Positions 1-46,088 of a stretch of 64,000 bases of DNA are shown here, in pieces. The notes beneath the pieces were generated by a model. It was not told the origin of the DNA and did not search any database. It worked only from the letters and a program-made list of their open reading frames with translations. Positions within the stretch are counted from its first letter, which is position 1. The number at the start of each line of letters is the position of its first letter. The stretch covers positions 2,484 through 66,483 of the forward strand of contig JAQUPB010000002.1 in assembly GCA_029004185.1 (NCBI GenBank), in the 5' to 3' direction. The translations under genes and the position numbers were made by a program. The DNA comes from Bacteroidales bacterium. Lineage in GTDB: Bacteria; Bacteroidota; Bacteroidia; Bacteroidales; JAHJDW01.

Positions 1-54
1 CAAATTTAGTAAATACTCTTAAATTTTTTCATTATTGCCTGATAAAAAAAATAC

Positions 55-147
55 ATCAGGGCTAAAGCCCATTCATGGCGGGTTTTATAACCCCGACCTT
101 AAGGTCGGGGTTACTGAAAAATGCATTTTTTGGACTTTAGTCCTGAT
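55..147. repeat. ~93-nt three-hairpin element with imperfect 16-nt terminal inverted repeats (copy A)
   Basis: Three hairpins: GGGC-TAAA-GCCC, CCCCGACC-TTAA-GGTCGGGG and GGAC-TTTA-GTCC. The ends ATCAGGGCTAAAGCCC and rc ATCAGGACTAAAGTCC match 14/16. A second copy lies at 34434-34527. Confidence 0.6.
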
Positions 148-258
148 TTTTTATGACTTTTATATATTTTTAAATATTAGATAATAATGAAACTTTTTAA
201 CAAAATACATTCTTTAGTCAATTTTTTCTATTTTTGAGAAAATAAAGTATCGAAAAAA

Positions 259-2987: not shown

Positions 2988-2990
2988 AAT

Positions 2991-3058
2991 AGTTTCAAGT
3001 TTGAGGTTTGAAGTTTAAAGTTAAAAAGCTGCGAGCTGTGAGGTTCGAGCTACGAATA
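2991..3058. repeat. degenerate 7-8-nt word repeats directly after the prkA stop
   Basis: AGTTTCAA GTTTGAG GTTTGAA GTTTAAA GTTAAAAA, followed by GCTGCGA GCTGTGAG GTTCGA GCTACGAA. Confidence 0.55.
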
Positions 3059-3107
3059 GAAAAATTAATAGTTAAAAAATTGTCTTTAAGGTCAATTTAT
3101 TGAAATA

Positions 3108-3153
3108 AAACCCGTAGGGTTTAATATTGGTAATCCCGTGCTTTAGCACGGGG
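3108..3153. repeat. pair of GC-rich mini-hairpins in the prkA-yeaH spacer
   Basis: AAACCC-GTA-GGGTTT (3108-3122) and CCCGTGC-TTTA-GCACGGG (3135-3152). The reverse complement resembles 24516-24542 (TACCAATATT...CCC.TACGGG). Confidence 0.5.
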
Positions 3154-3208
3154 TAAAGAAATAACAACACATTAAGCGTCGCAAACAAAAAATAAATTAA
3201 TTGTTAAA

Positions 3209-11609: not shown

Positions 11610-12413
11610 ATGACGATTAGAAAAATTATTGCAGTCACAGTAATTATAATTGTGGTTTTAGCTGCAATCTGGTTATACAGAAATCGATGTTACTTGAAAA
11701 AATTATATGTTGAATCGCGGACCGATCTGAAAATACCTTATTGCAACCAAAAAGGAAAAACGTCAAATATAAACTTCAGCAATGTAAATTGGGTTCACAG
11801 GGTTAACAGCATTGAACGATATTTTGAAATTTGCGAAAAATATAACGGAATTGAAATTGATGTAAATTTTGATAGCGAAAAAAATTGCTTTGATGTATAT
11901 CATGCCCCAAAGTCCTCTGTAAATCTTTGTCTGGAAGAGATGCTGAAAAATGTAAAAAATCCCGAAAAGACTTTTTACTGGCTAGATTTCAAAAACCTTG
12001 ATTCAACAAATTACATCCCTGCTCTGAATAACCTCAACAGTATTTGTGAAAAACTTAAAATCAAAAACAATTTAATAGTTGAATCCTCAAATCCTGTTAT
12101 ACTTTCTCATTTTACCGATTCGGGATTTTATACAAGTTATTATATTTTTACTTTTAATCCTTATGCATTGTCAGATTCTGTTGCAAATTACTATTATGAA
12201 AAAGTATGCGCAATACTTGATAAAAGCAGAGTTTGTGCAATATCGGGTTATGCCCAGCAGTTGGTTTTCATGAAACATTTTCCGGGTTACGATTTCTTAT
12301 TATGGAACCTAGAAAGCAATAAATTTTGGAGTAATATTTTTAATAAAAGATATAAATCAATAAAGAATGTAAAGGTAATATTGGTTAAAGACATTACTAA
12401 AAGTTATATATGA
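11610..12413 (+). CDS. membrane-anchored PLC-like/GDPD-superfamily phosphodiesterase (menorin/FAM151-like motif pattern)
   Basis: 267 aa with an N-terminal TM helix. The ordered motifs WVHRVNS ... IEIDV ... YHAP ... WLDFKN match the pattern I recall for DUF2181/menorin. Confidence 0.45.
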   Translation: MTIRKIIAVTVIIIVVLAAIWLYRNRCYLKKLYVESRTDLKIPYCNQKGKTSNINFSNVNWVHRVNSIERYFEICEKYNGIEIDVNFDSEKNCFDVYHAPKSSVNLCLEEMLKNVKNPEKTFYWLDFKNLDSTNYIPALNNLNSICEKLKIKNNLIVESSNPVILSHFTDSGFYTSYYIFTFNPYALSDSVANYYYEKVCAILDKSRVCAISGYAQQLVFMKHFPGYDFLLWNLESNKFWSNIFNKRYKSIKNVKVILVKDITKSYI

Positions 12414-14098
12414 TAATATTTAAAAGAAAATACGATTTAGCATTTATTGTATATACGGTATGCTTTCCTGCAATTGCGTGTTTGCATGCCGAAAACATCA
12501 CTATAAATAATTTTATATTAGCAATATTTTTGTCTTTATTGATAGGAATAATAGTGTATCTTATTTCGCTGAATTTTGATGGTATTGGCAGAAAATTATT
12601 TTTATGGTGCTTTTATATTATTCTCATAATTCCTTCGGTCATTGTTTTATCATATATTTTAATTGACGGAACTTTAATAAAAGGTTCAAATTATTTTATA
12701 GTTTTTGAAACAAATTTCAATGAATCTTCAGAGTTTTTGAGCGGATATTTATCAGCAAAAACAATAACTATATTATTAATATACGCGTTACCTTCAGTTG
12801 CATATCTGGTTTTTTCGAAAAAAAGCATAATTGATTTCAGAAATAAAAAGCTTTTTTCATTTTCAATTAAAAGAGAGAAAAAGTCATTAGTATTAAAATA
12901 TAAATACACGGGAATTGTCTTTATACTGTGCCTGATCTTTTTGTTAAAAAATGAAAATATTACAAGGAATAATTATATTCTGGATTTTTACAGAAGTTTT
13001 TATTCTTTCAGGAAAATAATAATAAAATATAAGGAATGTGAAAGTAAAAGGAATGTAAAAAACTTTATTGTTACGACTTCTTTACCCAACAGTGCAAATA
13101 AGACATTTGTAATTATAATCGGAGAGGCGTTGTCAAAACACCATATGTCTTTATATGGATATGAAAGAAAAACAAACCCACTGCTCGAAAAAATCAAAAA
13201 TGAACTTCTCGTTTATAATAATGTGATTTCTCCTCATTCACATACGCTGGAAGTAATGAGATGTTTATTGACTTTTGCCGATAATGAAAATGAAAAACCT
13301 TATTTTGAAAAACCTTCAGTAATTGAATTATTTAATAATGCCGGCTTTGAAACATATTGGATAGAAAATCAGGTTTCCATGAGTAAATGGGAAAATACGG
13401 GAATAATATCTAATAAAGCAAAACATTTTTATATGGCAAATTCAGATGACACCTGGTTTTATTATAGTTCTGTGTTTGATGAGTCAGCACTTAAATATCT
13501 GAATAAAATTTTGCCTGATAAAAAAGGAAAAGATAAAGTTATTTTTGTTCATTTAATGGGGAATCATGCAATTTATGATAAAAGATATCCTCATTCATTC
13601 GCGGTTTTTGATAACAATAAGGATTTTTATCAGGTAAAACAAAATTTGAAGGATAACGAAAAAAAGATTGTTAACGAATACGACAATTCGGTATTATATA
13701 ATGATTTTGTGGTTTCATCAATTATCGAAAAAATCAAAAAAACCGAAAAGTTTTCATTTGTAATTTATATACCTGATCACGGCGAAGAGGTTTATAATTT
13801 CAGGGATTATTACGGACATACTTTTTCAAGCAAGTCAAGTTATATGTGTGAAATACCTTTTATACTCTGGCGTTCGGAAGAGTTTAAAAAAGAAGTTAGT
13901 ATTTCGGTTGACACGACAAGACCATATTCAACCGAAAATCTGATATATTCCCTATCCGATTTGGCAAGACTGAATTATAATGATTATGATGCCGGTAAGA
14001 GCATATTTTCCAAAGAATTTATTGTAAGAAAAAGAATGGTCGGAGAACTCACATATGAAGAGCTAAAAGCAAAAACATTATCCCTTGGCAAGAATTAA
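12410..14098 (+). CDS. phosphoethanolamine transferase-like sulfatase-family membrane enzyme
   Basis: 562 aa with about five N-terminal TM helices. The sulfatase domain shows IIIGEALSKHHMSLYGYERKTNP and HLMGNH. An ATGA overlap joins it to the upstream gene. Confidence 0.75.
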   Translation: MIIFKRKYDLAFIVYTVCFPAIACLHAENITINNFILAIFLSLLIGIIVYLISLNFDGIGRKLFLWCFYIILIIPSVIVLSYILIDGTLIKGSNYFIVFETNFNESSEFLSGYLSAKTITILLIYALPSVAYLVFSKKSIIDFRNKKLFSFSIKREKKSLVLKYKYTGIVFILCLIFLLKNENITRNNYILDFYRSFYSFRKIIIKYKECESKRNVKNFIVTTSLPNSANKTFVIIIGEALSKHHMSLYGYERKTNPLLEKIKNELLVYNNVISPHSHTLEVMRCLLTFADNENEKPYFEKPSVIELFNNAGFETYWIENQVSMSKWENTGIISNKAKHFYMANSDDTWFYYSSVFDESALKYLNKILPDKKGKDKVIFVHLMGNHAIYDKRYPHSFAVFDNNKDFYQVKQNLKDNEKKIVNEYDNSVLYNDFVVSSIIEKIKKTEKFSFVIYIPDHGEEVYNFRDYYGHTFSSKSSYMCEIPFILWRSEEFKKEVSISVDTTRPYSTENLIYSLSDLARLNYNDYDAGKSIFSKEFIVRKRMVGELTYEELKAKTLSLGKN

Positions 14099-31437: not shown

Positions 31438-34398
31438 TTAAGGAGGGGATAAAGGGGAAGTTTTCACAAACTTTCCAATACTCACTCCATTCTCATTCAC
31501 AATTTTTATAAAATAAATTCCGCTTGATAAATCGCTAACATCCACTCGTAGCTCATGGCTCACAGCTTGAAGCTTTTTTATTTCCTGCCCGCTAATATTA
31601 TAAATTGCAATTGTGCTTTGCTTTGAGGTTTGCGGGAGTTCGATTGTTATTTTATCGGTTGCGGGGTTTGGATAAACATTAAACAAAATATTTTCAGTAA
31701 AAGATTTTTCTTTTATGTCCATATTAGCATTGTACGACCATACAACATAAACCGAATTATCGGCTGTTTTGTTGTTTCTATAAGGCGTCCAGTCGTTACC
31801 AAATATTTCGTAGTTTCTTTTGGAAAAAGGAATTGCATTATCGGAGTAAAGTTTAAAACCTTTGCGGAGTCTAAATTTAACGGCAATCCCGCCATCATTT
31901 AAAATTATACTGTTTACCGGAATAAAATATTTTTCATAACTGTTCAGGGGTTTTAAAGAAAGGGAAGTTAAATCAATTGCAAGCTCCGGAGTTAATGGGT
32001 TTATTTTATCAATAATAGCATTTGTATCAATTTTAAAAAGCTGAATGTAAGCATTCAGATTACTGTCAGGAGCATCAGTTGTCCGGTAAATCCAGAGACC
32101 AACAGAATCAATAGTAATAGGAAAAATATCTTTGCATGGTAAAAAATCAACAGCGCCGGTATCAAAACTAAATGAGTATTTCCATGGTACACCAAAAATT
32201 GCAGGAGGAGAAATCCATGAAAATTGTTTTTTTACGGCAGATGAATCCACTACTGCCACTTCAATTGTCAGGCTGTCGTTATTTGTTTCAATATCACCCG
32301 GAGTTTTCTGTTTTACTTTTACAGCGTATGTTTGTAAATTTGAAAAATTAAAATCATGATTTAAAGTTATTATTTTTGAATCTCCTGCACATATTGAATC
32401 TATTAATTCTTCGGAAGAATTAACAGCAGTGCTGTCGTTTAATTTTATTCCTGCACTTACGTTTATGTTTGTAGCATCAATGGTTCCGGTGTTTGATATT
32501 TTTGCTTTTATTTTTTTTGTTCCCTTTAAAATTATATTTCCTTTATTATCATTTTTATCGCAATCTTCAAGTGAAACCCATTCAACAGAAACATCTTTAA
32601 ACAAAGGATGACTGTGGGTATAATAACCAAGAATGCATAAACCCGGTAAAAATGTTTCGCCGTTATTAAAAATTGTATCATGTCGGAGTTGCGGATTATT
32701 ATTGTTTAACCATGTATAGTCGATTATTCCAGAAACATCTTCACATCCTATTTTCAAATCACTTGTTGTTATGCCCATGAATGCTTCATAATTCTGATAT
32801 TGGAACTTAAAATTCCCGTCTTTATAATATATTGCCTGCATTGTTATTTTTCCCGAAAAACCGGGTGCCGCTTTCTGGTAGGAGGAATAATCTTTCCACG
32901 TCACAATAAATTTATCGGTATCGGTTCTGTAAAATAATTTTGAACTGTCAGCAGGAAATAAATCGGTTAAGAATGGTGCAATAAAATTATTCGGTAAATC
33001 GGTTGAAGGCATTGCGCCGAAAGGAGAGGATAAAGCATCGGAAGAACTGAAACCGATGTAACCATTATCGCCGACATAAAATTTGTTTATTTTATAATTA
33101 TCTCTGAAAAAAATAAAATCCTGCCCGATGTTAAACGGACCTTTTACTCCGTCGTTTGTAAGATTATTAACTTCTGTACCGCTTCCATCGGTTATATCAA
33201 GCCAGTTATACACAAGCAGAGGATATTTTGAAACAGAATCAGTATCTAATTTATTTGATATTAGTTTATAAGCATCGTCGTTTTCGGGAGGAAGAAATTT
33301 AGGTTTTATACCAGTTACCATCAGATTATTTACAGTAAAATTATAACTCGAAGGATTTAAATTTCCGATTGCATAATAACCATTGTAATCTCCCGACCAT
33401 CCCCAGTTGAAATGAAATTTATCATCACTGCTTCTGTATCCGTCGCAAACAAAGGCGTGACCGCCGCTGCCGCCGGTGCCATTATATAAAACCGGACGAT
33501 TTGAATTAAGTTCATTTATGATTTCATTTTTCCATGCATAGTCATTCGGGAAGTCATATTTTGCCTTTACTTCAACAGAGTTTGAGTAATTAAAATAATT
33601 TTTCAGAGCATATGGAACAGTTGTAATAAACGAGAACGAACCCGTAGCGCCGTAATTCATATCAACGGATACTCCGCAGTGATAAATTAAAGTGGCAACA
33701 GCAGAATTGCTCGAAATAATAGAATCAGGCATCGAAGTCCAGTTATAAAATGTATTTCCGAAATCGGCATAAACCGAATCATTAACACCGAGAAAATATT
33801 TATGGCTTCCTGTTCCTTTTTCAGGATAGCTGTGATATTTTAAAATCTGAGCCATTGCAGTAGCTAAACATCCTGCAAATGTATGATATCCCGGACCGGC
33901 TGAATCAACCGGACACATTTCATTATAATAAATGTTCTGGTTCCATTTGGTTGTTAGCAAAGGTTGAATGTCTTCGGTATTTTTTTTGAAAGATAGCGCA
34001 ATTATTTTTTCCCATTCTTCTTTGGTTTGCGAGTTGCTTATATTATTATCAATAATAAATTTTATTTCTTCACAATAATTATCGAACCATGATTTAACTG
34101 CGGGATTATTTATTTTTTGTTCAAACTTACCTTCGCTCGAATGTGCTAACACAGGAATAACGGCATCGTCGGCAGAAACAATTACAAAACCTCCGCCTCG
34201 GAAATTAAAAACATAAAAAGCTGTTGTGCCGTTATAAGTATTTTCAAATTCTGATGAAATGGGGTAATCGTTTTTTGATGAACTAAAATATTTGTAGTAG
34301 TTGACAGCAATCTTTCTTGCATAATCTTTTGTAACAGGTGCGCTGTAAAGCAAACCCGAAGCAAAAAAAATAATCAGAAGAAAGATGTTTCTTTTCAT
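31438..34398 (-). CDS. C10 family cysteine peptidase (paralogue 1) with long unassigned region and T9SS C-terminal domain
   Basis: 986 aa with signal peptide and an N-terminal Spi/propeptide-like domain (YVFNFRGGGFVIVSADDAVIPVLA). Catalytic Cys context is AGCLATAMAQILKYH, His context GGHAFVCDGY, plus FNWGWSG. T9SS CTD is VYPNPATDKITIEL...GIYFIKIV. Confidence 0.8.
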   Translation of the reverse strand: MKRNIFLLIIFFASGLLYSAPVTKDYARKIAVNYYKYFSSSKNDYPISSEFENTYNGTTAFYVFNFRGGGFVIVSADDAVIPVLAHSSEGKFEQKINNPAVKSWFDNYCEEIKFIIDNNISNSQTKEEWEKIIALSFKKNTEDIQPLLTTKWNQNIYYNEMCPVDSAGPGYHTFAGCLATAMAQILKYHSYPEKGTGSHKYFLGVNDSVYADFGNTFYNWTSMPDSIISSNSAVATLIYHCGVSVDMNYGATGSFSFITTVPYALKNYFNYSNSVEVKAKYDFPNDYAWKNEIINELNSNRPVLYNGTGGSGGHAFVCDGYRSSDDKFHFNWGWSGDYNGYYAIGNLNPSSYNFTVNNLMVTGIKPKFLPPENDDAYKLISNKLDTDSVSKYPLLVYNWLDITDGSGTEVNNLTNDGVKGPFNIGQDFIFFRDNYKINKFYVGDNGYIGFSSSDALSSPFGAMPSTDLPNNFIAPFLTDLFPADSSKLFYRTDTDKFIVTWKDYSSYQKAAPGFSGKITMQAIYYKDGNFKFQYQNYEAFMGITTSDLKIGCEDVSGIIDYTWLNNNNPQLRHDTIFNNGETFLPGLCILGYYTHSHPLFKDVSVEWVSLEDCDKNDNKGNIILKGTKKIKAKISNTGTIDATNINVSAGIKLNDSTAVNSSEELIDSICAGDSKIITLNHDFNFSNLQTYAVKVKQKTPGDIETNNDSLTIEVAVVDSSAVKKQFSWISPPAIFGVPWKYSFSFDTGAVDFLPCKDIFPITIDSVGLWIYRTTDAPDSNLNAYIQLFKIDTNAIIDKINPLTPELAIDLTSLSLKPLNSYEKYFIPVNSIILNDGGIAVKFRLRKGFKLYSDNAIPFSKRNYEIFGNDWTPYRNNKTADNSVYVVWSYNANMDIKEKSFTENILFNVYPNPATDKITIELPQTSKQSTIAIYNISGQEIKKLQAVSHELRVDVSDLSSGIYFIKIVNENGVSIGKFVKTSPLSPP

Positions 34399-34433
34399 AA
34401 AAAATAATAACGATCGTCCGAATAAAATGTTTT

Positions 34434-34527
34434 ATCAGGGCTGAAGCCCTTATTATATGCGTTTTCTATAACCCCAGCCTTAAGGCTGGGGTTAATAAAT
34501 ATAACTCCATTTTGGACTTTAGTCCTG
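34434..34527. repeat. three-hairpin element (copy B)
   Basis: ATCAGGGCTGAAGCCC ... CCCCAGCC-TTAA-GGCTGGGG ... GGACTTTAGTCCTG. Its modules are homologous to 55-147, with diverged linkers. Confidence 0.6.
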
Positions 34528-34538
34528 CTTGCAACTTA

Positions 34539-34625
34539 TTAAATTAAATAACCTTTTGTAACTGGCGAGCTATAAAGCAAACCAGAAGCAAAAAAAATAA
34601 TCAGAAGAAAGATAGGTTTTTTCAT
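34539..34625 (-). pseudogene. duplicated 5' fragment of a C10 peptidase gene (signal peptide only)
   Basis: 34548-34634 is ~87% identical by hand alignment to 34321-34407, the 5' end of paralogue 1. It encodes MKKPIFLLIIFFASGLLYSSPVTKGYLI then a stop. Confidence 0.65.
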
Positions 34626-43283: not shown

Positions 43284-46088
43284 TTAATAAAAATTTAATT
43301 CAAGCCAGTTTTTACCAATTCTCATATCTACATCAATGGGAACAGTAGTTTTAATGCTGTTTATCATTTTGTCTTTTATAATTGGTGATACGATTTCCAA
43401 TTCATCTTTTTTGACGTCAAAAACCAACTCATCATGAACCTGAAGTATGAGTTTTGACTTGAATTTTTTGTTAATAAATTCCTTATAAATATTTATCATG
43501 GCAATTTTAATCATGTCGGCAGCCGAACCCTGAATCGGAGCATTTATTGCATTTCTTTCGGCATATCCTCTCACTATGGAGTTGCCCGAATTAATATCTC
43601 TCAGGTATCGTCTTCTTCCCATTATTGTTTCCGTATAACCCTTCTGGCGAGCCATTTCAATGCTTTTGTCCATGTATTTTTTTACGCCGGGATATTTTTC
43701 AAAATATTGTTTTATTATTTCGCCTGCTTCTTTTCTCGGAATTCCAAGCCGTTCCGATAATCCAAAACCCGATATCCCGTATATTATTCCGAAGTTAATT
43801 GTCTTTGCATTTCGCCTCATTTCCTTTGTTACATTTTCAATACTTACTCCATAAACTTTCGAAGCGGTTGCAGTATGTATGTCAATTCCCTGCCTGAATG
43901 CTTCGAGCATATCCTTGTCTTCACTCATTTCTGCCATTATCCTTAATTCTGTCTGCGAATAATCCGCTGAAAGCAAAAGATAATTTTCATTTCTCGGAAT
44001 AAATGCTTTTCTTATTTCTTTTCCTCTTTCTGTTCTTACGGGAATATTTTGAATATTCGGATTTGTGGAACTCAATCTTCCCGTGGAAGTAACAATCTGG
44101 TTGAAAGAAGTGTGTACTCTTCCTGTTCGCGGATTTACCAATAGTGGAAAGGCATCAATATAGGTGGATTTGAGTTTTGTAAGTGAACGGTAATCTAAAA
44201 GTTTCGGAATTATTTCATGTTTGTTGATTAATTTTTTCAAAACATCTTCGCTTGTTGAATATTGTTTTGTTTTTGTGAGCTTAGCCTTTTCAATAATATT
44301 GAGCTTTTCAAAAAGAATTTCACCGAGTTGCTTTGGTGATGAAATGTTAAATTCAACACCTGCGAGTTGAATAATTTCTTTTTCAAGTTGTTTTACTTCT
44401 ACTTCGAGCAGCACGGAATAATCGTTTAAAAATTCCGAATCAATTTTAATTCCTTCTGCTTCCATTGCCGCAAGTACCGGAGTAAGCGGTGCTTCTATTT
44501 CCTCAAAAAGTTTTAATGCATTTGATTCTGCAAGTTTCGGTTCAAAAGTATTTTTGAGTTGCAAAGTAATGTCGGCATCTTCGCAGGAATATTCCTTGAG
44601 AATTTCATCAGGAACAGTGCGCATGCTCTGCTGGTTTTTTCCTTTTGCTCCTATTAAAGTTTCGATTGAAACCGGTTCATAATCCAAATATGTTGAAGCA
44701 AGAAAATCCATATTGTGCCGCGATTCCGGTTGCAAAACATAATGTGCAAGCATTGTGTCAAAAAGTTTTCCCCCGACTTCAATATCATACCATTTTAAAA
44801 TTGCAATGTCAAATTTTATGTTCTGTCCGACCTTTTCGATTTTTTCATTTTCGAAAATTTCTTTGAATTCATTGCATATTTTATATGCGTCGTTATAATT
44901 TTCGGGAAAAGGAATGTAATATGCTTCGTGCGGTTTAAATGAAAATGACATTCCTACTAATTCGGAATTATGCGAATCCAAGCCGGTTGTTTCGGTATCA
45001 AAACAAAATAATTTTTGTTGTTTTAAAATCGAAATAAATTCTTTTCGTTTTTCTGATGTATCAATAAGAATGTAATTGTGTGCAACTGAATTTATGTTTT
45101 CCTTTGGCACAAAAACATTTTGTTCTTCTGTAATTATTGGTGGTTCTTTGTTCTCAGAAGAAATAGTTTCTGTATTTTTTTCTTCGGTTTCTGTTGTTTC
45201 TTCAAATGTCAATGGCTTATCGTATAAAATTCTCTGAGCGAGACGGCGGAATTCAAGTTCCGTAAAAAGACTCTGCAATGCATCTTTATCCGGTGATTTT
45301 AATTTTAATTTTTCTTCGTCGAAATCAACCGGAACATTGGTAATTATTGTTGCCAGTTCTTTCGACATTATCGCAAGCTCCGTATTTTTTTCGATTTTTT
45401 CTTTTAATGTATCTTTTAATAAATGTGTCGACTTCAATAAATTTTCCACATTGTCATATTCGGCAATGAGTTTTGTTGCAGTTTTTTCACCTATGCCGGG
45501 TATTCCCGGAATGTTATCAACCTTATCGCCCTGCAGTGCGAGTATTTCTATAATCTGCTCCGGGCGTTTTATTCCGAACCTTTCGCAAACTTCTTTCACT
45601 CCTAAAATTTTTGCCTTTTCGCCAAACTTTGCCGGTTTATAAATAAATACTTTATCACTTACAAGTTGTCCGAGGTCTTTGTCCGACGTCATGATATAAG
45701 TTACAAAATCTTTTTGTTCGGCAACTTTTGCAATAGTTCCTATTACATCATCGGCTTCGTAACCGTCGAGCATCAATACTGAAATATTGAATCCTTCCAA
45801 GAGTTTTAATATATGAGGAAGAGAATTGATTATATCTTCGGGAGTTTCTTCGCGGTGTGCTTTGTATTCGGCAAATGAGTCGTGGCGGACTGTAGCTGCC
45901 TTTGTATCAAAGCAAACCGCCATGTGAGTTGGTTTTTCTTTTTCAAGAATTTCAACCAGCGTATTTGCAAAACCATAAGTTGCCGAAGTATTTATTCCTT
46001 TCGAAGTTATGCGCGGATTTTTATTCAACGCATAATATGCGCGGTAAATCAGCGACATCGCATCAAGAAGAAAAAGTTTTTTTGGCAT
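43284..46088 (-). CDS. polA: DNA polymerase I
   Basis: 934 aa with N-terminal 5'-3' exonuclease (LFLLDAMSLIYRAYYAL). Polymerase motifs are RRNAKTINFGIIYG and LQVHDELVF. Confidence 0.9.
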   Translation of the reverse strand: MPKKLFLLDAMSLIYRAYYALNKNPRITSKGINTSATYGFANTLVEILEKEKPTHMAVCFDTKAATVRHDSFAEYKAHREETPEDIINSLPHILKLLEGFNISVLMLDGYEADDVIGTIAKVAEQKDFVTYIMTSDKDLGQLVSDKVFIYKPAKFGEKAKILGVKEVCERFGIKRPEQIIEILALQGDKVDNIPGIPGIGEKTATKLIAEYDNVENLLKSTHLLKDTLKEKIEKNTELAIMSKELATIITNVPVDFDEEKLKLKSPDKDALQSLFTELEFRRLAQRILYDKPLTFEETTETEEKNTETISSENKEPPIITEEQNVFVPKENINSVAHNYILIDTSEKRKEFISILKQQKLFCFDTETTGLDSHNSELVGMSFSFKPHEAYYIPFPENYNDAYKICNEFKEIFENEKIEKVGQNIKFDIAILKWYDIEVGGKLFDTMLAHYVLQPESRHNMDFLASTYLDYEPVSIETLIGAKGKNQQSMRTVPDEILKEYSCEDADITLQLKNTFEPKLAESNALKLFEEIEAPLTPVLAAMEAEGIKIDSEFLNDYSVLLEVEVKQLEKEIIQLAGVEFNISSPKQLGEILFEKLNIIEKAKLTKTKQYSTSEDVLKKLINKHEIIPKLLDYRSLTKLKSTYIDAFPLLVNPRTGRVHTSFNQIVTSTGRLSSTNPNIQNIPVRTERGKEIRKAFIPRNENYLLLSADYSQTELRIMAEMSEDKDMLEAFRQGIDIHTATASKVYGVSIENVTKEMRRNAKTINFGIIYGISGFGLSERLGIPRKEAGEIIKQYFEKYPGVKKYMDKSIEMARQKGYTETIMGRRRYLRDINSGNSIVRGYAERNAINAPIQGSAADMIKIAMINIYKEFINKKFKSKLILQVHDELVFDVKKDELEIVSPIIKDKMINSIKTTVPIDVDMRIGKNWLELNFY

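Follow-up and report, generated by a model that had tools for sequence, protein, structure and literature searches.

The window analysed here, a 64-kb stretch of DNA, belongs to a low-GC Bacteroidales contig with PrkA, DUF444 and SpoVR genes. Downstream of polA, at 31438-46088 on the minus strand, it has four C10 proteases in tandem, PrtT-like paralogues that bear type IX secretion tails; one of the window's C10 proteins and a PrtT protein from an NCBI Bacteroidales metagenome-assembled genome (MAG) are 100% identical. A tRNA scan of the window found no tRNA gene. A preliminary description had proposed two ~93-nt copies of an element made of three conserved hairpin modules, and we found both where they had been placed, at 55-147 (copy A) and 34434-34527 (copy B), with all three modules present in each. 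Copy A, on the plus strand, consists of a 5' end hairpin at 59-70 (GGGCTAAAGCCC), a central hairpin at 88-113 (TAACCCCGACC-TTAA-GGTCGGGGTTA, an 11-bp stem with a TTAA loop) and a 3' end hairpin at 132-143 (GGACTTTAGTCC). Copy B, also on the plus strand, has the corresponding hairpins at 34438-34449 (GGGCTGAAGCCC), 34469-34494 (TAACCCCAGCC-TTAA-GGCTGGGGTTA) and 34514-34525 (GGACTTTAGTCC). The inverted ends reported for the ~93-nt segment (14 of 16 positions) are real, and so is the compensatory change between the two central stems, in which GA to AG on one side is matched by TC to CT on the other and all pairs are kept. The proximity to genes was borne out almost to the nucleotide, with measured distances of 111 nt from copy A to ORF 259 and 35 nt from copy B to the C10 start at 34398.

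Neither copy can be explained by chance. Trained on copies from other genomes, a covariance model gave copy A 88.2 bits (E 3e-17) and copy B 91.7 bits (E 6e-18), the fold z-scores of the two copies lie between -5 and -9, and the central-stem pattern had 0 expected matches in the window over 100 shuffles. The element contains no ORF. Full copies in the 64-kb window number only these two, in addition to one weak and doubtful match to the element model on the minus strand at 3096-3190 (21.6 bits, E 0.009). This match lies just downstream of prkA, between that gene and the DUF444 gene, contains hairpins AAACCCGTAGGGTTT and AATCCCGTGCTTTAGCACGGGGTAA, and has a counterpart at the orthologous place in the closest relative that we found (locus L246, 12178-12276, about 21 bits); it could be either an ancient remnant or a conserved hairpin unrelated to the element. 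The interval between prkA and the DUF444 gene is only 221 nt in the window (2988-3208), and its equivalent in L246 holds a nucleotidyltransferase/HepT-like toxin-antitoxin pair and a small ORF (12298-13169).

The 93-nt boundaries had to be moved outwards by about 26-43 nt to reach the true ends. In copy A the core is preceded by a left arm at 29-54 (plus strand), which begins with the terminal inverted repeat TCATTATTGCCTGATAAAA, and is followed by a right arm at 148-190 (plus strand), which ends in GATAATAATGA and has about 20 extra AT-rich nucleotides compared with the left arm. The termini pair with each other (TCATTATT with AATAATGA at 183-190), and the left arm is homologous to the TCACTAATGTYCGATAAAA ends of the UBA2287 subfamily. 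The whole unit thus spans 162 nt, 29-190, between a left target-site duplication at 21-28 (AAATTTTT) and a right one at 191-198 (AACTTTTT). The insertion boundary was set by the empty site in L246, in which the locus is syntenic and PrkA is 95% identical; there the orthologous sequence reads AAATACTCTT-TATTTTTT-TAATAAAATA, with a single TATTTTTT, uninterrupted and with no element. Because the relative has an empty site and the window has the flanking duplication, copy A is a lineage-specific insertion with a target-site duplication of about 8 bp. We found no full copy of the element in 50 kb of the relative, a stretch that takes in the upstream region of its nearest homologue (50% identity) to the C10 gene next to copy B.

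The left arm of copy B (34399-34433, plus strand, ending in CGTCCGAATAAAATGTTTTA) resembles the UBA2287-type arm GTYCGATAAAA and fills the space up to the ATG of the minus-strand C10 protease gene at 34398, and in its right flank the arm is absent. The truncated side abuts a duplicate stub of a C10 5' end (34539-34630, minus strand; ATG at 34625, 28 codons, then a stop), which matches the opening ~95 nt of the intact C10 gene (start at 34398) at about 90% identity. Copy B is truncated on one side and is associated with a rearranged, duplicated C10 5' end. The duplicated ~95 nt (34539-34630 versus 34304-34403) correspond to the C10 signal-peptide region, and the stub has its own upstream region, from which transcription would cross the stub and the element before it reached the true ATG at 34398. 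The C10 array itself is dynamic, because paralogue number and arrangement in the relative (locus L248) differ from those in the window.

The preliminary description had asked for further copies elsewhere, and these proved to be numerous. A scan of one genome per species, anchored on both end hairpins with the middle left free, returned at least 113 loci, and among the genome loci listed about 65 were the same element, in many Bacteroidota MAGs. The hosts of these genome copies include Bacteroidales, Chitinophagaceae, Cyclobacteriaceae, Chryseolinea and Salinivirgaceae. A metagenome scan, with no constraint on the third stem pair or on the loops of the two end hairpins, returned at least 120 loci, and the 93-nt core is present in hundreds of copies across Bacteroidota MAGs and metagenomes. 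Partial, tandem and nested copies also occur. The genes that flank the copies are unrelated housekeeping genes, and we rejected an association with any gene family on this ground; a phage origin was likewise dismissed, as a viral scan gave only unrelated hairpins.

In the consensus core, TCAG-GGRC-TNAA-GYCC and its inverse flank a GC-rich central hairpin, TAACC-N6-TTAA-N6-GGTTA. In a set of 50 non-redundant copies, pairing in the central stem reaches 97.3%, both partners have changed at 9 of the 11 pairs, and none of 500 shuffles reached the observed pairing and covariation. The third pair of the end hairpins covaries as G-C, A-T or C-G, with non-pairs in only 2 of 224 cases, and a pair that extends the 3' end hairpin locally was AU in 21 copies, UA in 9 and GC in 7. 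End hairpins take the forms GGGC/GCCC, GGAC/GTCC and, rarely, GGCC/GGCC; an apparently conserved asymmetry of GGGC at one end and GGAC at the other was an artefact of our first search pattern, and once that position was left free GGGC at both ends was the commonest state. Loops are TAAA/TGAA at the 5' hairpin and TTTA/TTCA at the 3' hairpin. It follows from these patterns that the element has two-fold symmetry and that its two strands read alike. The outer foot TCAG is conserved, with T before CAGG in 108 of 115 copies and TGA after the 3' hairpin in 67 of 115, and the inner foot of the end hairpins is not conserved in these 115 copies. A single long hairpin in place of three was preferred by the minimum-energy fold of one copy, but the alignment disagrees: asymmetric copies carry a constant C.A mismatch in the end-to-end helix, and the outer TCA/TGA pairs form in only 58-68% of copies. 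The long-hairpin model is thus unsupported, because its outer pairs often fail, while the local hairpins covary.

Copies from a single genome remain similar beyond the 93 nt, and the additional flanks are inverted repeats of each other. We found one core within at least five such outer shells, which have unrelated ends and are associated with duplications of 3, 5-6, 6 and 7-8 bp. Shells that end in CAATGGTTCGGTA have duplications of 5-6 bp and those that end in TGGCTGTAGTT of 6 bp; the TCACTAATGTYCGATAAAA type, which is that of the window, shows 6-7 bp in L220, L012 and L046; and in the GGGATTGACAAT shell (~199 nt, ends GGGATTGACAATAAATAA) 16 of 22 copies show a TWA duplication of 3 bp. A terminal repeat together with an exact 6-bp duplication was seen in 9 real cases, compared to 0.95 in controls in which flanks from different copies were paired, so that the proposed check for target-site duplications at further copies came out positive. 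The shelled units measure 145-200 nt (144-199 nt by subfamily), and their target is AT-rich intergenic DNA. A length below 300 bp, the lack of coding sequence, terminal inverted repeats, a target-site duplication and an empty site in a relative are all found here, and the suggestion that the element resembles a MITE is right in part. In ~1.5 Mb of examined loci there was no autonomous insertion sequence (IS) with matching ends and no DDE partner; a core-less shell was also not found in the examined loci, where the pattern of the window's shell is too degenerate for AT-rich DNA.

Several arrangements in other genomes bear on how such repeats combine. In L013 (1145-1296) a GTAG-tagged REP doublet is inserted in the TTAA loop of the central hairpin, and another small hairpin lies inside the same loop in L065 (6457-6560) and L112 (2964-3067), which suggests that palindromic repeats receive insertions in their hairpin loops. 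A 21-nt tandem repeat array (TTCCACGCACATGCGTAG) adjoins a 168-nt tandem duplication that contains the element in L059 (4223-4474) and L072 (2900-3151), in at least two paralogous regions of one MAG. The metagenome contigs L142 and L154 have the left flank and the element in common and diverge directly after its right end, which could be due to recombination at the repeat or to an assembly chimera.

The same hairpins are found beside a transposase gene of the Y1 (HUH) type. A tblastn search of the examined loci, with an IS200 TnpA query and then with the resulting match, revealed Y1_Tnp genes in L183, L155 and L137 (Pfam 85-91 bits). In all three an end hairpin lies 15-28 nt upstream of the Y1 ATG, and in L183 and L155 a second end hairpin overlaps the Y1 stop codon, with the TAA stop itself as its loop in L155. 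Central-type hairpins (TAACTCCGCC...GGCGGAGTTA) are located further out. Four further Y1 homologues, from independent genomes and on long contigs, displayed the same flank layout. A covariance model built from dispersed copies only (R1) matched the sequenced flanks of all seven Y1 genes with E values from 2e-3 to 3e-15, on both sides in six and upstream only in L137, in which the gene is cut by the contig end and the sequence covers the upstream side. The flanks stand in inverted orientation, and the hairpins keep fixed positions relative to the Y1 start and stop codons, with proteins that are only 50-70% identical. No Y1 gene lies within the 64-kb window.

The Bacteroidota Y1 proteins scored 64-66 bits with the NCBIfam IS200 model (cut-off 55) and 27-34 bits with the RayT model NF047646, below its cut-off of 80. 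The family has more than 2000 members, almost all of 143 aa and from Bacteroidota, which are named IS200/IS605 by NCBI and RayT by JGI, and each protein cluster is usually found on one or two contigs. A parE-parC-Y1 arrangement is conserved in two genomes at ~90% nucleotide identity (Y1 92%, ParC 98% identical), and this synteny is as expected if a single-copy gene has been inherited vertically. In L244 (6580-7041) parE and parC are separated by a second Y1_Tnp gene, which is absent from the syntenic L239. The HuH histidines and the Y---Q--HH motif are invariant in the alignment, and this motif signature places the 143-aa protein in TnpA_Y1 subclass 1.2.

A comparable layout was seen in another phylum. 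An Acidobacteria RAYT (NCBIfam REP_Tyr_transpos 110 bits, cut-off 80) has an analogous 77-nt three-hairpin element on both sides, and the last residues of the protein, PGLKP, are encoded by hairpin CCAGGGCTAAAGCCC. Such RAYT loci, which the one-genome-per-species scan also picked up, are present in Acidobacteriaceae MAGs (L066, 2715-3355; L027, 6805-7376; L051), and the 77-nt element, CCAGGGCTAAAGCCC..CGCGGGTTTAAAAACCCGC..CCCCGGACTAAAGTCCGGGG, is abundant in these MAGs. In a Desantisbacteria MAG (L061, 960-1200) there is a dense cluster of TAACTCAGGGCTTTAGCCCTGA and TCAGGACTTTAGTCCTGA hairpins, which looks like hairpins of this type assembled into a BIME-like array, in a phylum far from Bacteroidota.

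The element resembles three established kinds of repeat, the REPs, REPINs and MITEs, each in part. With REP/BIME/REPIN-RAYT systems it shares short GC-rich hairpins, inverted pairs with a spacer and many intergenic copies, and a single-copy, vertically inherited Y1/HUH gene bracketed by inverted hairpins is REPtron-like. Unlike REPs, the element has a third, conserved central hairpin; the canonical GT[AG]G (GTAG) foot of REPs and REPINs is absent, and the conserved outer TCAG is present instead. REPs and REPINs also lack outer terminal repeats and target-site duplications, whereas copies of the element have both. The partner in Bacteroidota is furthermore IS200-like, of subclass 1.2, and not a class 2 RAYT. 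Compared to IS200/IS605 and their palindrome-associated miniature derivatives, which also have a Y1 transposase and subterminal hairpins beside the gene, the Y1 gene here is single-copy and syntenic rather than multi-copy, its flanks are inverted repeats, and the dispersed copies have target-site duplications. The likeness to the MITEs Correia/NEMIS, ERIC, RUP, Nezha and Chunjie extends to a size of 100-235 bp, lack of coding capacity, terminal inverted repeats, target-site duplications, intergenic location, a stable fold-back and presence/absence polymorphism between relatives (PMC3184786). In contrast to those MITEs, the core of the element is conserved across orders of the phylum while its ends and duplication lengths vary by subfamily, and it is tied to a Y1 transposase gene and not to a DDE insertion sequence.

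It has been reported by Quentin et al. (2018; PMC6006769) that TnpA_Y1 subclass 1.2 is low-copy and occurs in Cyanobacteria and Bacteroidetes, with no REPs reported. The Bacteroidota proteins agree with that subclass in size (~143-148 aa), in the HuH motif DH[ILV]H, in Y---Q--HH and in low copy number. The subclass was described without REPs and without typical IS200 termini, whereas all seven genes studied here are flanked by hairpins of the dispersed type. The same source (Table S1) gives cyanobacterial REPs such as GTAGTCAGGGCTTTAGCCCTT and GTAGTGAGGACTTTAGTCCTC, and the end modules of the element are the same hairpin; the REPs of subclasses 2.7 and 2.8 in Cyanobacteria (AGGGC-TTTA-GCCCT and AGGAC-TTTA-GTCCT) likewise match. 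The view that the element belongs to no described family thus holds for RNA, with no match in Rfam, and fails for its end hairpins, which are of this published REP type. Three aspects of the element are unusual: its ends are interchangeable around a core that is conserved across orders, its three hairpins lack the GTAG foot, and its partner Y1 belongs to a subclass previously described without repeats.

Taken together, we consider it probable that the element is a REP-like three-hairpin unit, with a Y1 transposase that recognises it and MITE-type shells that carry it. The core is the conserved part of a family of small, non-coding mobile DNA repeats of Bacteroidota. Because the hairpins flank a conserved Y1/HUH gene, as in REPtrons, they are most likely single-stranded-DNA recognition structures of the 143-aa protein, in an organisation like that of RAYT systems, and the protein would bind or cleave them. 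Such recognition would explain the covarying stems on a symmetric DNA element, which may be kept by selection on DNA hairpins of either strand and not by an RNA function. Counting against this reading are the lack of a Y1 gene in the window, the RayT scores below the cut-off, the missing GTAG foot and the 2018 description of subclass 1.2 without REPs. One core within shells that have unrelated ends and different duplications points to a REP-like unit inside MITE-type shells, which it may have entered by nesting into palindrome centres. No known Y1/HUH transposase makes target-site duplications, and the placement of copy A therefore points to a DDE enzyme; the shelled unit inserts in AT-rich intergenic DNA and duplicates a short target, a MITE signature that suggests a DDE-type transposase acting in trans.

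The preliminary description had leaned towards an RNA whose fold is under selection, be it a 5'-UTR regulator or a small RNA. Strong covariation and very stable predicted folds are what such an RNA would show, both copies in the window lie upstream of gene starts, and in a set of 164 copies divergent intergenic regions (33) outnumber convergent ones (11), with 73 co-directional. Compensatory change in palindromes can, however, come from hairpin-templated repair without selection, so that covariation alone is no proof of selection, and in a DNA palindrome covariation does not by itself speak for selection at the RNA level. From simple ORF calls around 66 copies, 16 were tandem-sense, 12-16 tandem-antisense, 16 divergent and 4-5 convergent, so that sense and antisense are equally common for an element whose strands read alike. 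On the sense strand of co-directional copies, G-T-type mismatches (5) and A-C-type mismatches (6) show no RNA signature, in a comparison of low power. Rfam searches of the window and of 10 loci gave no match that reached the gathering threshold, and only noise at E <= 10. The unrelated housekeeping neighbours, the absence of copy A from the orthologous site of a close relative, and the partial, tandem and nested copies also speak against an RNA. Since the same hairpins flank a single-copy Y1 gene, the element is better read as a selfish repeat of the REP/MITE kind than as a regulatory RNA, which we regard as very unlikely. An intrinsic terminator was rejected, because the base composition is reversed (the central hairpin has T-rich sequence before it and A-rich sequence after it, on both strands) and convergent copies are the fewer. 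Even less likely is the idea that the modules serve as operator palindromes, bound as double-stranded DNA by a dimeric protein. Each module is indeed a dyad, and GGACTTTAGTCC is the core of the mycobacterial DosR box; this match was the sole return of a literature search by sequence and is a coincidence. The six variable pairs of the central stem vary freely and conserve no half-site, copies within one genome (L031) carry different stems, the element is a mobile insertion, and no regulator gene is associated with it.

A more substantial competitor is an ordinary MITE, in which a DDE insertion sequence would have given rise to a deletion derivative with the hairpins as mere interior sequence, and the flanks of the Y1 genes would be a historical relic, with no role for these genes in the spread or upkeep of the element. 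The empty site with its ~8-bp duplication and the terminal repeats and duplications of several subfamilies are as expected of a MITE, no duplication is expected from HUH enzymes, and a census has placed tens of thousands of MITEs, mostly genus-specific, in Bacteroidota (PMC11602168). A single deletion derivative nevertheless fails to explain why the shells number at least five, with ends that are unrelated and duplications that differ in length, and the internal part of the element is the most conserved while its ends vary, the reverse of normal MITEs. Nor would it explain why hairpins occupy fixed start and stop positions at seven of seven Y1 genes with proteins as divergent as those described above, or why an independent Acidobacteria RAYT has the same layout. 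We therefore hold an ordinary MITE to be unlikely, and retain the Y1-recognised unit in MITE-type shells as the preferred reading. A stronger version of that reading is possible, although we offer it tentatively: the "orphan" Y1 of subclass 1.2 would be a domesticated RAYT-like protein with the three-hairpin unit as its cognate repeat, and this unit would spread in two layers, first nesting in the centres of unrelated palindromic MITEs and then being amplified by their DDE transposases.

For the window itself, copy B now separates the promoter region of a secreted C10 protease gene from its start codon, and it marks a rearrangement within the C10 paralogue array. For annotation, the element accounts for a common and strongly covarying intergenic motif of Bacteroidota that is easily mistaken for a regulatory RNA. 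Its conserved part is internal and its transposition ends are interchangeable, which is unusual for miniature elements, and the hairpins are a candidate DNA partner for a Y1/HUH subclass that was described in 2018 without associated repeats or a known role. If the spread in two layers is true, it would explain how one conserved core came to lie in many shells; and if the Y1 protein is indeed domesticated, the element that flanks the Acidobacteria RAYT would make this hairpin type a recognition module that extends across phyla.
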